Source of the DNA: Eledone cirrhosa
Lineage: Eukaryota
Direction: 5' to 3'
Assembly: GCA_964016885.1 (NCBI GenBank)
Contig: OZ024764.1
Coordinates: 22,692,001-22,756,000, forward strand
DNA length: 64,000 nucleotides
Shown here: positions 8,793 to 59,609 of the stretch, in pieces
Position numbering within the stretch: position 1 is the stretch's first letter
Layout of the letters: each line of letters opens with the position of its first letter
The notes under the pieces: model-generated
Told to the model about the DNA's origin: nothing
Databases searched by the model: none
Seen by the model: only the letters and a program-made list of their open reading frames with translations
Program-made: the position numbers and the translations under genes

Positions 8793-9989
8793 ATGTCGAA
8801 AAATATAGTAAAATCACCATTCCACTGTGATATCTGTGGTAAATCATTCTCTCGTAGTAATCAGCTAACTACTCACAAACGCATTCATACAGGAGAGAAG
8901 CCATATCACTGTGATATCAGTGGTAAATCATTCAGTCGCAGTAATACCTTAACTAATCACAAAAATATTCATACAGGAGAGAAACCATATCACTGTGATA
9001 TCTGTGGTAAAACGTTCTCTAAAAATAATAACCTAACTACTCACAAACGTATTCATACAGGAGAGAAGCCATATCACTGTGATATCTGTGGTAAATCATT
9101 CAGTGACAGTAGTAGCTTCAGAGTTCACAAACAAATTCATACAGGAGAGAAACCATATCACTGTGACATCTGTGGTAAAACGTTCTCTAAAAACAATAGC
9201 GTAACTACTCACAAACGTATTCATACAGGAGAGAAGCCATATCAATGTGACATCTGTGATAAATCATTCTCTCAAAGTAGTCACCTAACTACTCACAAAC
9301 GTATTCATACAGGAGAGAAGCCATATCAATGTGATATCGGTGATAAATCATTCAGTGACAGTAGTAGCTTCAGAGTTCACAAACAAATTCATACAGGAGA
9401 GAAGCCACATCACTGTGACATCTGTGGTACATCATTCAGTCACAAAAGTAACTTAACTACCCACAAACGTATTCATACAGGAGAGAAGCCATATCAGTGT
9501 GATATCTGTGGTAAATCATTCTCTCGTAATAACCTAACTACTCACAGACGTATTCATACAGGAGAGAAACCATATCACTGTGATATCTGTGGTAAAACAT
9601 TCACTAAAAATAATAACCTAACTACTCACAAACGTATTCATACAGGAGAGAACCCATATCATTGTGATATCTGTGGTAAATCATTCTCTCAGAGTAATCA
9701 GCTAACTTCTCACAAACGTATTCATACAGGAGAGAAGCCATATCACTGTGACATCTGTGATAAATCATTCTCTCATAGTAAAACCTTAACTACCCACAAA
9801 CGTACTCATACAGGAGAGAAGCCATATCACTGTGATATCTGTGATAAATCATTCTCTCAGCATAAAACCTTAACTATCTACAAACGTACTCATACAGGAG
9901 AGAAGCCATATCACTGTGACATCTGTGGTAAATCATTCTCTCATAGTAATACCTTAGCTATCCTCAAACGTACTCATACAGGAGAGTAG
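8793..9989 (+). CDS. Tandem C2H2 zinc-finger protein 1 (14 finger repeats; 4 with lost ligands, 1 with a 1-aa deletion; premature TAG)
   Basis: 398-aa ORF of CxxC-x12-HxxxH with TGEKPY linkers; upstream acceptor TTTCAG at 8574. Confidence 0.9.
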
Positions 9990-10148
9990 CCATATCATTG
10001 TGACATCTGTGGTAAATCATTCGCTGACAGAACTAGCTTAGCTACCCACAAACGTACTCATACAGGAGAGATTTACCACATCTGTGGTAAATCATTCACT
10101 CTTAGAGGTAACTTAACCAAGCATGTGCGTATTCATAAAGAAGTTTAG
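9990..10148 (+). pseudogene. In-frame continuation of ZNF1 beyond the premature stop (one intact and one broken finger)
   Basis: Reads [52 protein letters not shown], matching the paralog ends [11 protein letters not shown]. Confidence 0.85.
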
Positions 10149-10796
10149 CTGTATCAATATCAAACTCATTACATCATACTACAACAACAACAATTGTGTA
10201 GATCCATCATCCTGGCTAAAACTGGGGTTAACCTTGTAGGTTTTAACTAGGACAGGGATCATAAACACCAGGTTTCCAATTTTGAAGTAGTGTTTGAAGA
10301 TTTTGTGTAAATTAAAGTTTTTCACATTAAACTTTCATTTATTATACTTTAACAGGTAAGATATATATTTGTATTTTTAGTAAAGGTTGGGAACTTCTGT
10401 AATTTAAACCTGCCAATAAAATGAAAACTTTTGTTGTTGCTAGTCTGACATTGATATTAATTCTATTGTCCTGTACATTGTCTCAAATATCACAGATTAA
10501 ACAGATTTTAACAATAACAACAGAAATCAATAACTTGTAAGCCTAATATCTAGCTTCCATTTTAACCATTTGATATTGTTGTTCCCCTCCTGTCTCGTCA
10601 GGTCTTTTAGATTTCAACTTCTATCTACTGTACTATTCCATCACCAAGGCAACATTCATCTGGCTGGCAGCTTACATCAACTACAGATCTCATCAGTGGT
10701 TCACAACAGGCTGTCTGAAAGAAACTTCCAGATATCTTCTATGTCATAGCTATCAATCTCCTCCTCCTTATCATATGTATCATGTAGAACATCTCT

Positions 10797-55356: not shown

Positions 55357-57992
55357 AGAGGCCTGTTGGTGAGGACAAGCTGGAAGTGGTGACATCTTTC
55401 TGCTACCTGTGTGACATGTCAGCTGGAAGTGGAGCCAAGTTCACTGCCATCGTGCTGTGCCACTCCACAGGTAACAAGTTTAGGCAGCTTCTCTTAATCC
55501 TCAAGACATGCTGGCTACCATTAGACACCATGGGGCAGGTTTATAACACCTGTGGGAGAAGTGTGTTGTTTCATGCCAGCGAGACCTGGGCCATGTTATC
55601 TGACTGTCTGAATTGACTCTGAAGAAATAACAGAGCTATGATCCACTGGATGTGTAATGTGACCATTGAGGATGATGTCAGCTCAACTGAGCTCCTAAAA
55701 AAACTGCTGATCGACAACCTCAAGGATGTGTTTCACAGGAGACACATGCACTGGTATGGCCATGTTGTGCATTCTCTCTCAACTCATCTATGCTTGGTCG
55801 TTGATGCACATTGACATTGCACATCCAACGGAGCATACTTGCTTCATTTTTCTCCAGCCGTTGCATATCCTCTGCAGTTGCTGTCCGTGTCTCACTACCG
55901 TGCAGCATCACACATCTCATGCAGGCATCACCAGCCATTCGTTCTTAGAGAGAAACCCTTCTTTGTCAACAGAGGAAGCAGCTCCCTAAACTTCTTCCAA
56001 CCCGTCCTTATTCTAGATACTATGGCCTCTGGGCACCCTCCTCCCATGCTAATTTGATCACCTAGATACCGGAAGCTATCAACCACTTCTATAGAACCTA
56101 CCTGCATTTGAAAAATGTGTCTATCACTGCGACTTCTACCGTCAAATTTCCCTGTACATCTACTACATATGTATTTTTCCCTACCTGATAGTTTGCCTGC
56201 TATCCCACTACATTTCTTGTGTACCCAAGATCTGCATTGTGTTACATTATAGAATTTATGCCAGTTCCTTTTCTACATATTGAACAAGGCCATTTCCTTG
56301 ATGGAATGACAGTTTTGTCCTCTTTTCTACTCATCAACACTTTAGTCTTAGCTAGGTTCACTCTCAGTCCTCTTGCTTCCAACTGCTGTTGCAATAGCCA
56401 GAATTTATTCTCTAGCTCCTCTACTGATTCTGCTATAAGAACCATATCGTCAGCATAGAGAACTTCCCATGGGCACCTAGTCTTAAACTCCTCTGTTATG
56501 ACTTGGAGGACTATAATGAACAAGAGCGGGCTGAGGACCGAACCCTGATGTACTCCTGCATCTGTAATTCCTCACTAAACTCCATGCCTACCCTCACTTT
56601 ACTGACAGCACCTCTGTACATAGCTTGCACTGTCTTCACAAACTATTCCTCTACACCTAGTTTCCTTAGGGTCCACCAGATGACAGATTGGGGTACTCTA
56701 TCAAAGGCCTTCTCTAGGTCAACAAAAACTAAGTATAGTGGTTTTCTTCTCTAAGAACCTCTCTTGTAGTTGTCTCACTAAGAAGAGGGCATCTGTTTGA
56801 CCCTTTCTCTAAGTTGCGCTAGTATTCTTTCTGTCACTTTCATAACCTGATCCATCAGGTTTATACCCCTATAATTACTCCCCTCCAGAACATCCCCTTT
56901 ACCTTTACCTCAATTTATGAGAATACTGCTGCACCAGTCTTTGGGTATGACACCACCATATATAGCTAGATTAATGATGCATTCAACCAGTTTAATTCCT
57001 ACTTCTCTTGATGCCTTCAGCATCTCAGCAACTATCCCCAACAGTCCAGCGGACTTACCATTTTTCATTTCCTTAATTGGACCCTATAGTCGTCAATCTC
57101 AATAGCTGGTCCTTCTGTTGGGTCTACTGAAGGTAGCTCCCCTCCTATTCATTCTCCACATTCATCAGTCTCTCATAATGACATTTCCAGGCCTCCTTTT
57201 TTTTGAGAATCAGTGACACTAAGTGCACCAACATCCTGATTTACACTGACACACTGCCTTGCAATGTGGATCACCGCACATCTCTGATCTCCCCATCGCA
57301 GGACATTGGCAAACCTTCTACTCTCAGCCTCCCTGCATGTTGAGTAGGCCTGACATCTAGCTTCTCTCTTAGCGGCTGTGAATCGGTCTCTACCCCTACC
57401 ATTTTTCCTAGCCTTTTGTCTCTAATGGCTCTATCTACCGTGCTGTTCCACCACCAGGCCACCCTCTGTCTGGTTGGAGCTCTGCTCCAGCCACAAGTTT
57501 CTTCAGTAACCTGCAGTATGTTGTCACGTAAGAAATTCCAGTTATCATCCATGTCATACGACATTGAAGGGCTTTCCTAAATTTATATTTTAGTGAAAGG
57601 TCTTTTAGTTTCCAGTCCTTCTTTTTCAAACCTTCTTGTATGTCTCTCTTTGTCTCTTGCTTACTGAGATGTCACTAACGGCTAACCTATGTTGGGGGGT
57701 TACATTGTTCCCTGGGGTATGCCTTAGTATTTGACACCATCTGTCTCTCTTGCTACTTAACTAGCAAGAAGTAAATCTGTCTCATGTGCTCACCTGATTG
57801 GTAGGTTATTAGGTGGTTGGTAGGTTTCTTGAAGTGTTGCAAATGGTTAGTTCACTTGCATCACAAAATACAAGAAGCCTCACTCTTTCTTCGTTTCTTG
57901 AGCCATAACCATGACCACCATGTACCCCAGTATATCCATCCTGGAACTGTCCAACATGACCATTGAAGTCCCCTGCTATTATAACTAGGTCT
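55357..57992 (-). mobile_element. Degenerate RTE LINE remnants (paralog of 5068-7700)
   Basis: YADD-containing ORF 56242-56523. Confidence 0.88.
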
Positions 57993-58577
57993 CAAAATCT
58001 CATAGATTTGATATTATGAGAGATAAAGCATTTACTGTGAAAATATAATAGTATATATAGAGTAATGTGAATACTAAAGGGTTAATCTGATGTCACTAAT
58101 AACTACTTTTATCTGTCAGTTTATTCTAATGTCACTAATAACTACTTTTATCAGTCAGTTTAATCTAATGTCACTAATAACTACTTTTATCAGTCAGTAT
58201 AATCTACTACCACTAATAACTAACCTATGTTAGTCAGCACATTCTTCACCAAAGAAGACCTTAGTATTTATTACAGTCCATTTATCAATATAGAAATATT
58301 ATAGGAAATTTGTACTGATGTATTACAAGTTTCTGAGTATCTTATAATGTTCTTTTATTATTTCAGAATACCAGAGGACATTGGCATTAAAGAGCACGTT
58401 ACATCAGACATATCCTCAACATTAACCATTTCTAATGAAAGACACTAACCATCATTTTCAAATAATTTTGAAAACACTCAACACTTTGAAGTGATTTAGT
58501 AATATAACTAAATTTCTCAGTATTAAGCTGTGAATTATGTGAGAAACTGAGGTGATTGATATCTTTTAGTAGGAGAT

Positions 58578-59609
58578 ATGTCGAAAAATATAGTAAAATC
58601 ACCATTCCACTGTGATATCTGTGGTAAATCATTCTCTCGTAGTAATCACCTAACTACTCACAAACGTATTCATACAGGAGAGAAGCCATATCACTGTGAT
58701 ATCTGTGGTAAATCATTCAGTCGCAGTAATACCTTAACTAATCACAAACATATTCATACAGGAGAGAAACCATATCACTGTGATATCTGTGGTAAAACGT
58801 TCTCTAAAAATAATAACCTAACTACTCACAAACGTATTCATACAGGAGAGAAACCATATCACTGTGATATCTGTGGTAAAACGTTCTCTAAAAACAATAA
58901 CCTAACTACTCACAGACGTATTCATACAGGAGAGAACCCATATCATTGTGATATCTGTGGTAAATCATTCCCTTGTAGTCATCACCTTACTATTCACAAA
59001 CGTATTCACACAGGAGAGAAGCCATATCAATGTGATATCTGTGATAAATCATTCAGTGACAGTAGTAGCTTCAGAGTTCACAAACAAATTCATACAGGAG
59101 AGGAGCCACATCACTGTGACATCTGTGGTAAATCATTCAGTCACAGAAATAACTTAATTACCCACAAACGTATTCATACAGGAGAGAAGCCATATCACTG
59201 TGACATCTGTGGTAAATCATTCTCTCGTAGTAATCACCTAACTACTCACAAACTTATTCATACAGGAGAGAAGCCATATCACTGTGACATCTGTGGTAAA
59301 TCATTCTCTCGTAGTAATCACCTAACTACTCACAAACGTATTCATACAGGAGAGAAGCCATATCAATGTGACATCTGTGATAAATCATTCTCTCATAGTA
59401 ATCGCCTAACTACTCACAAACGTATTCATACAGGAGAGAAGAAATATCACTGTGACAACTGTGGTAATTCATTCTCTCATAGTCATAACCTAACTACTCA
59501 CAAACGTACTCATACAGGAGAGAAGCCATATCACTGTGACATCTGTGGTAAATCATTCTCCCAAAGTGGTACCTTAACCAAGCATGTGCGTATTCATACA
59601 GAAGTTTAG
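58578..59609 (+). CDS. Tandem C2H2 zinc-finger protein 4 (12 intact fingers)
   Basis: 343-aa ORF ending [11 protein letters not shown]; acceptor at 58366. Confidence 0.93.

Follow-up and report, generated by a model that had tools for sequence, protein, structure and literature searches.

How do neighbouring copies of one zinc-finger gene come to carry different strings of fingers between nearly identical flanks, and what would their products read? The question is raised by a 64,000-nucleotide stretch of Eledone cirrhosa (assembly GCA_964016885.1, contig OZ024764.1, positions 22,692,001 to 22,756,000 of the forward strand), hereafter the window, which is repeat-rich animal DNA in which four C2H2 zinc-finger genes, here called A to D, lie in tandem duplicated units of about 15 kb. 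The answer that we favour, with a probability of roughly 0.65, is that A to D arose by recent tandem duplication of a gene encoding fingers only, likely part of the octopus C2H2 expansion; that the number and order of their fingers were changed, likely by unequal crossing-over and gene conversion; that selection has likely acted at helix positions -1, +2 and +3; and that the products would serve as DNA readers that turn over quickly, with transposable elements (TEs) as their most likely targets.

Structure and integrity of the four genes

The arrays are the following, in window coordinates:

8793..9989, + strand: coding sequence of gene A, 10-residue leader and 14 finger units, 5 of them broken, with a premature TAG in the last linker
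9990..10148, + strand: decayed finger units of A, about two, 3' of the premature stop
23351..25135, + strand: coding sequence of gene B, leader and 21 finger units, 4 of them broken
43056..44258, + strand: coding sequence of gene C, leader and 14 intact fingers, with an internally duplicated run (fingers 5-12) and the last unit deleted
58578..59609, + strand: coding sequence of gene D, leader and 12 intact fingers

The initial annotation had described four open reading frames that share a short leader, with 14, 21, 14 and 12 finger units. They are confirmed, at 8793, 23351, 43056 and 58578. All four start identically, although the proposed 11-residue leader has only 10 residues, its final H being residue 1 of finger 1. 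The units are 84 bp long, are joined by TGEKPY linkers and match PF00096 and PF13465, as tandem C2H2 fingers of the Kruppel type do. All eight helix words quoted earlier occur in the arrays. The near-invariance of the DNA scaffold proved true in part: conservation is at least 90% in 57 of the 84 columns, but only 4 of 57 junctions carry the quoted 48-nt sequence unchanged, the mean being 2.3 mismatches.

Canonical CxxC-x12-HxxxH units amount to 52 of 61 (A 9/14, B 17/21, C 14/14, D 12/12), and in each broken unit a zinc ligand or a helix residue is lost. An assembly artefact was considered and ruled out, because the copies carry different insertions and because A and B have a 3-nt deletion and a Cys loss in common; the premature stop of A is as read in the assembly. 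The damage to A and B, with 9 of 35 units broken and that stop in A, would fit a second explanation, which we consider unlikely: the four copies would be transcribed but decaying, their contact diversity having been selected in an older finger pool, and the present reshuffling would be neutral instability of an 84-bp repeat. It accords poorly with C and D, whose 26 fingers are all intact, and with the four frames themselves, which stay open over 1.0-1.8 kb without a frameshift in the arrays, whereas the adjoining TE frames are broken.

The very similar flanks that had been noticed earlier diverge by 0.8-4.1% between copies. The range is 0.8-2.6% directly upstream and 2.4-4.1% downstream; a piece present in the copies and resembling a long interspersed nuclear element (LINE) gives 2.7-2.9%. 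A larger duplication, at an offset of about 35.5 kb, relates A-B to C-D. Such tandem clustering of young paralogues is a mark of the octopus expansion. Duplication of the whole unit would have copied the gene together with its TEs, and the unit around A has the following core:

4851..11371, no strand: core of the duplicated unit around A, with a decayed LINE-like piece on the - strand, the finger exon and an 82-bp repeat

Turnover and probable exchange of fingers

That the same modules are reused in different orders, as had been proposed, is borne out by most gene pairs, between which finger order is scrambled. At a flank divergence of about 3%, some 90-95% of orthologous fingers would be expected to lie within 4 differences in 66 bases. 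The collinear matches found number 11 for A-B, 8 for B-D, 6 for A-D, 3 for C-D, and 2 each for A-C and B-C; only A-B exceeds shuffled order (reached in 0 of 200 shuffles; A-D, p = 0.09; B-D, p = 0.075). Units 4-11 of A and 12-19 of B differ at 4 of 669 bases, with no synonymous change; for the LINE-like flank common to both, the figure is 67 of 2280 (p = 1.5e-4). This block of eight fingers is thus closer than its flank, which suggests recent conversion or unequal exchange.

In A, 13 of the 14 fingers have their nearest relative in another gene, as do 12 of the 21 in B (6 ties) and 9 of the 12 in D (2 ties); in C, 10 of the 14 have it within C itself. We conclude that A, B and D use a common finger pool, and that C has multiplied its own fingers. 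Mean DNA identity between fingers is 0.84-0.88 within genes (A 0.84, B 0.84, D 0.86, C 0.88) versus 0.84-0.87 between genes, so that only C stands above the between-gene values. Of 204 pairs of distant columns inside the finger, 99 violate the four-gamete rule. Recombination is the likely cause of this turnover: misalignment of 84-bp units would allow fingers to be gained, lost and exchanged, within and between copies.

Probable selection at the DNA-contact positions

The initial annotation had staked its case on an excess of amino-acid change at the contact positions, and a per-position analysis of the ratio of nonsynonymous to synonymous rates (omega) revealed such an excess. It used 55 of the 61 finger rows (50 unique), two fingers of 81 nt and the four terminal units being excluded; for pairwise analysis, seven B copies of the A/B block were also excluded, leaving 48 fingers. 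Heterozygosity peaks at -1 (0.81), +3 (0.78) and +2 (0.65), Thr occupies +6 in 39 of 55 fingers, and fourfold sites of the scaffold are nearly fixed (Thr ACA 55/55, Gly GGA 54/54). A codon model on the 50 unique fingers gave an omega of 3.5 at -1, 2, 3 and 6 versus 0.84 elsewhere, with a likelihood ratio statistic of 29. For contact codons with their own synonymous rate only, omega was 4.8 on one tree (p = 0.0012) and 2.6 on another (p = 0.025), and for the non-helix scaffold it was 0.5-0.6 (p = 0.04 and 0.002). Contact changes on short tree edges were 19 nonsynonymous and 0 synonymous, and the tree-free pairwise ratio was 2.9 (2.6-3.3).

A comparison was made with 277 control arrays, found by similarity to D, mostly vertebrate and with isoforms included. 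The share of amino-acid diversity located at -1, 2, 3 and 6 is 0.415 in A, 0.365 in B, 0.427 in C and 0.376 in D, values reached by 4, 8, 2 and 7 controls, respectively (control median 0.25). Within-gene amino-acid identity of the fingers is 0.73-0.80, versus a control median of 0.58.

Several results weigh against selection as we read it. Pairwise synonymous divergence is 0.22 in the helix versus 0.11 in the scaffold, and the ratio drops to about 2; position +6 is indistinguishable from neutral (omega 1), the signal being confined to -1, +2 and +3. On the columns of Baker's supplement (-2, -1, 3, 6) the diversity share is 0.28-0.35, matched by 15-96 of the 277 controls, and since these are mostly vertebrate, unusualness among octopus fingers cannot be claimed. 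Recombination violates the single-tree assumption, a problem for selection tests of which a passage of PMC5519329 warns, and the codon-model p-values are therefore too optimistic. Finally, scaffold singletons are 17 nonsynonymous versus 2 synonymous, and all four differences in the A/B block are nonsynonymous, one of them destroying a zinc ligand, so that recent purifying selection is not visible.

The singletons and the non-contact omega of 0.84 would also suit decaying copies, as would a non-coding 39-bp repeat in the same units, which likewise ranges from 2.6 to 22 copies; the low omega of the non-helix scaffold and the exclusively nonsynonymous contact changes on short edges would not. On balance, diversifying selection on helix positions -1, +2 and +3 is the likely cause of the excess, new residues at these positions being favoured.

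Comparison with PRDM9

The arrays had been called PRDM9-style, a label that the data do not support as it stands, the likeness being partial. Homogenisation is weaker and crosses genes (except in C), and the proteins have no SET match. According to the passages on the coding minisatellite of PRDM9 in PMC5519329 and PMC11703093, the two have in common 84-bp units, a near-fixed synonymous scaffold, diversity focused on the helix and a variable finger number. Unlike PRDM9, no SET, SSXRD or KRAB was found here, the pool is common to several genes and +6 varies little.

Published contact diversity shares are 0.687 in human, 0.910 in mouse and 0.414 for cattle chrX (PMC5519329), and 0.49-0.55 in salmonids (PMC11703093); the lizard PRDM9 among our controls has 0.647. 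Diversity between finger DNAs is 0.12-0.16 here versus 0.034-0.116 in the four mammalian PRDM9 rows compared, which include human (0.079), mouse (0.034) and cattle chrX (0.116; PMC5519329). No PR/SET domain, with KRAB and SSXRD, was found N-terminal to an array in the window, where stretches of at least 38 residues around B, C and D were searched, and within-gene finger identity does not exceed the between-gene level in A, B and D, only C being higher. Because no SET domain was found, and because homogenisation is weaker and spread across genes, we conclude that the arrays resemble those of PRDM9 in part, yet the genes are not PRDM9.

It is very improbable that these proteins specify recombination sites together with a separately encoded methyltransferase. 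Their contact share of 0.37-0.43 does overlap the low end of the range for full-length PRDM9 (0.33-1.0; Table 1 of PMC5519329), and synonymous scaffold sites are near-fixed, but the lack of a SET, SSXRD or KRAB match, a finger pool common to at least four paralogues and the prevalence of Thr at +6 all argue otherwise, as do passages reporting octopus fingers in neural and precursor cells (PMC9712504, PMC12513265).

Among lacertid lizard KRAB/SCAN finger proteins (P0103, P0022, P0054, P0101), finger identity is 0.72-0.82 and the diversity share 0.38-0.53; such a finger mode therefore also occurs outside PRDM9 in vertebrates.

The 5' region and the effector domain

The absence of KRAB, ZAD and SCAN announced by the initial annotation was confirmed within the range searched. 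For the four proteins Pfam listed finger-type families, with no effector among the best 25 families per protein. Pfam matched neither KRAB, SCAN, ZAD, BTB nor SET among the 104 open stretches scanned on the + strand, which surround B, C and D, are mostly of at least 38 residues and come from 26813-27900, 38000-43055 and 46990-58577; the matches above cut-off were to Tc5/DDE transposase pieces, plus a repeat-driven one on the 39-bp array. The term effector-less thus stands as regards Pfam. Its other support does not: the in-frame TGA at -21 is present in all four genes, but it is weak evidence against an upstream coding exon, and no proof, since acceptor-like AG triplets lie 3' of it.

Two features describe the likely 5' untranslated region (UTR):

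58345..58577, + strand: predicted splice acceptor (AG ends at 58366) and likely 5' UTR of D, with copies at 8574, 23139 and 42238
42403..42997, + strand: C-only segment of about 600 bp within the likely 5' UTR, 66-75% like part of the relic exon described below

In A, B and D the triplets in question, TAG-TAG-GAG, follow the TGA and precede the ATG; in C they are followed by TTATG. They would permit the arrays to be last coding exons behind a small effector exon that escapes recognition, as in the FiNZ proteins of zebrafish, with a phase 1 splice to the AG just after the TGA. FiNZ is only 28 residues long and matches no known domain, according to a passage of PMC10547256, and a 5' exon is not among the joints listed. 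Even so, we find this explanation improbable. The pyrimidine tract at that AG is short, and a stronger acceptor is predicted about 210 nt upstream of the ATG in A, B and D (817 nt in C), with in-frame stops 3' of it; if splicing uses that acceptor, the start of the exon would be 5' UTR, given these stops, of which six lie within 120 nt of the ATG. The three named Octopus relatives P0138, P0130 and P0229 begin with a leader of 20-35 residues directly before the first finger. The 104 stretches, mostly of at least 38 residues, cover little of the sequence preceding B and none of that preceding A, and they add no effector match. The absence of a joint into the 5' acceptor among the 15 listed of about 1600 joints is neutral either way.

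The proteins are thus likely finger-only, to judge from their sequences, and translation would start at the shared ATG. The likely 5' UTR contains 2 to 16 upstream ATGs, which is a point for the decay of the copies.

The C-only segment lies directly 5' of the leader, is not in A, B or D, and is bordered by near-repeats of about 10 nt; it may be ancestral and deleted in A, B and D, or inserted from a distant paralogue. Its open stretch of 66 residues gave no Pfam match and no usable match in the ESM Atlas. Just 5' of the ATG, at 58530-58577 and in the other copies, ELCEK and ETEVIDIF can be read out of frame and are similar to the start of P0229. The present leader may have been cut down from a longer one of octopus; local alignments of four leaders with upstream frames of the window are marginal. 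When cluster representatives were searched with the P0229 leader, 4 matches came back, two of them repeat-driven, which does not establish a conserved leader domain in octopus.

A 3' intron and a relic finger exon

Downstream of the arrays, an intron and a second exon recur in the four units:

44515..47003, + strand: GT-AG intron, 256 nt 3' of the C stop (joint 44511->47001, cut +3)
10356-11427 (A), 25344-26812 (B) and 59813-60566 (D), + strand: copies of the intron, with donor and acceptor kept
47004..47370, + strand: downstream exon, a decayed zinc-finger exon in which half a finger survives as a relic (47296-47367); its copies begin at 11428, 26813 and 60567

Four sequencing runs were aligned to 44260-58640, of which X24 and X21 come from the same organism as the window. 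The joint, with its GT..AG ends, is seen in one contig of X24 (depth 357, short side 36 letters; library type unrecorded). It is not listed in the large run X21, where some joints went uncounted, nor in X2 or X4, and it may come from any paralogue. The intron starts 203-366 nt 3' of the stop codons across the four units. An intron in this position could trigger transcript decay, by a rule that is not known to us to hold in molluscs, which would be in line with decaying copies.

The acceptor and the half finger of the relic exon have counterparts in the main exon (79% over 58 nt in one case, 84% over 44 nt in the other, with E 4e-10 for both); the zf-C2H2 match of the relic exon is below cut-off (E 0.0066). 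This resemblance implies that the unit originally had two finger exons, the second of which is now likely 3' UTR.

Octopus relatives and known systems

When 356 proteins with at least three fingers were ranked by scaffold identity, P0138 of Octopus sinensis came first (0.875), P0130 of O. vulgaris second (0.76) and P0131 fourth. By this measure, taken without a tree, the closest relatives are octopus, five named Octopus proteins being included. Whole-protein searches returned generic finger proteins at 37-61% identity, residues 1-72 of D found only generic finger clusters in the ESM Atlas, and PDB matches were generic too (Zfp568, Aart, PRDM9). A search for longer forms gave, among 120 of 211 matches, one named Octopus protein with an unrelated start, which is weak evidence on fusions. 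In P0130 and P0131 the fingers are joined to an unrelated C-terminal region (PF27618 on P0131), a candidate fusion or a chimera of gene models. Sequence similarity points to a likely membership of the four genes in the known octopus C2H2 expansion, and would by itself place the window in an octopus or near relative. Albertin and colleagues are said to have counted in 2015 about 1,800 octopus C2H2 genes, typically of 10-20 fingers, in work whose supplement may already cover this architecture.

The passages on expansion and clustering of octopus C2H2 genes in PMC9068888 and PMC12513265 describe clustered multi-finger genes, as here, where the best scaffold match is Octopus and a short leader precedes the fingers in both; the leader of 10 residues differs from the 20-35 of the octopus relatives, and those passages do not deal with the shuffling of fingers, with omega at contact sites or with a relic exon on the 3' side. 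PMC10547256 reports that entropy is high at contact positions, both in octopus and in other species.

Young mouse KRAB clusters (passages of PMC5363842 and bioRxiv 2025.02.26.640358) are comparable in that segmental duplications carry TEs, fingers are repeated, duplicated or deleted in blocks, and some copies decay; unlike them, no KRAB was found here, and an eight-finger block was exchanged between adjacent genes. Lineage-specific expansions of poly-zinc-finger genes and the FiNZ-ZNFs of zebrafish (passages of PMC2604467 and PMC10547256) also present finger gain and loss and contact-site selection among young paralogues, but here the fingers of any one gene resemble each other much more closely, and no N-terminal domain exon was seen. 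In a literature search that covered journals outside subscription, nothing was found on cephalopod C2H2 genes with PRDM9, and no paper, by title or abstract start, on finger shuffling in cephalopods.

Surrounding repeats

One non-coding minisatellite lies next to a finger exon:

41252..42109, no strand: non-coding 39-bp minisatellite 5' of the finger exon, with 22 copies in C versus 4.6 in A, 2.6 in B and 3.6 in D

Non-coding minisatellites of 39, 82, 48 and 31 bp (41252-42109, 10801-11371, 12919-13726 and 4635-5043) are very unequal in copy number between units. Given this strong variation, repeat instability is general in the region. Decayed TEs at 27993-29378, 39489-40979, 14175-15713 and 30675-32295 comprise two reverse transcriptases, one of which has a PHD-like finger, as well as pieces of Tc5/DDE transposase and a spin-doc finger protein. 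Several of these TEs were duplicated along with the units and are not fresh insertions.

What the cluster may read

Taken together, the four genes would represent birth-and-death turnover of DNA readers, in which failed copies decay: C and D are intact and A would be decaying. TEs are the most likely driver, on the basis of a family-level prediction: passages of PMC10547256 report that predicted octopus finger motifs are enriched in TEs, and the TE-targeting hypothesis is already published there. A protein without an effector domain would most likely occupy its site and recruit co-factors through some of its fingers, which we offer as a proposal. A broader reading, which we hold only tentatively and think doubtful, is that octopuses possess a family-wide library of finger modules, in which finger-only genes trade blocks by gene conversion, selection diversifies -1, +2 and +3, and new transposons are recognised by proteins to which no silencing domain is attached; this would be a minisatellite-like, adaptive reader system spread over many genes, and not confined to one as in PRDM9.

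Expansion, finger turnover and contact-site selection are each already known from other animals, and the cluster is a good test case and not a new system. Its copies are about 3% apart and have different finger strings, a measurable contact-codon excess and two intact genes, C and D; its value rests on the measured contact-site excess, the exchange of a block across genes and the relic 3' exon. Passages of PMC12513265 and PMC12988792 pose as an open question whether a TE arms race or neural regulation lies behind the cephalopod finger expansion. If it is true that these proteins silence TEs without an effector domain, they would do so by a route distinct from that of KRAB.

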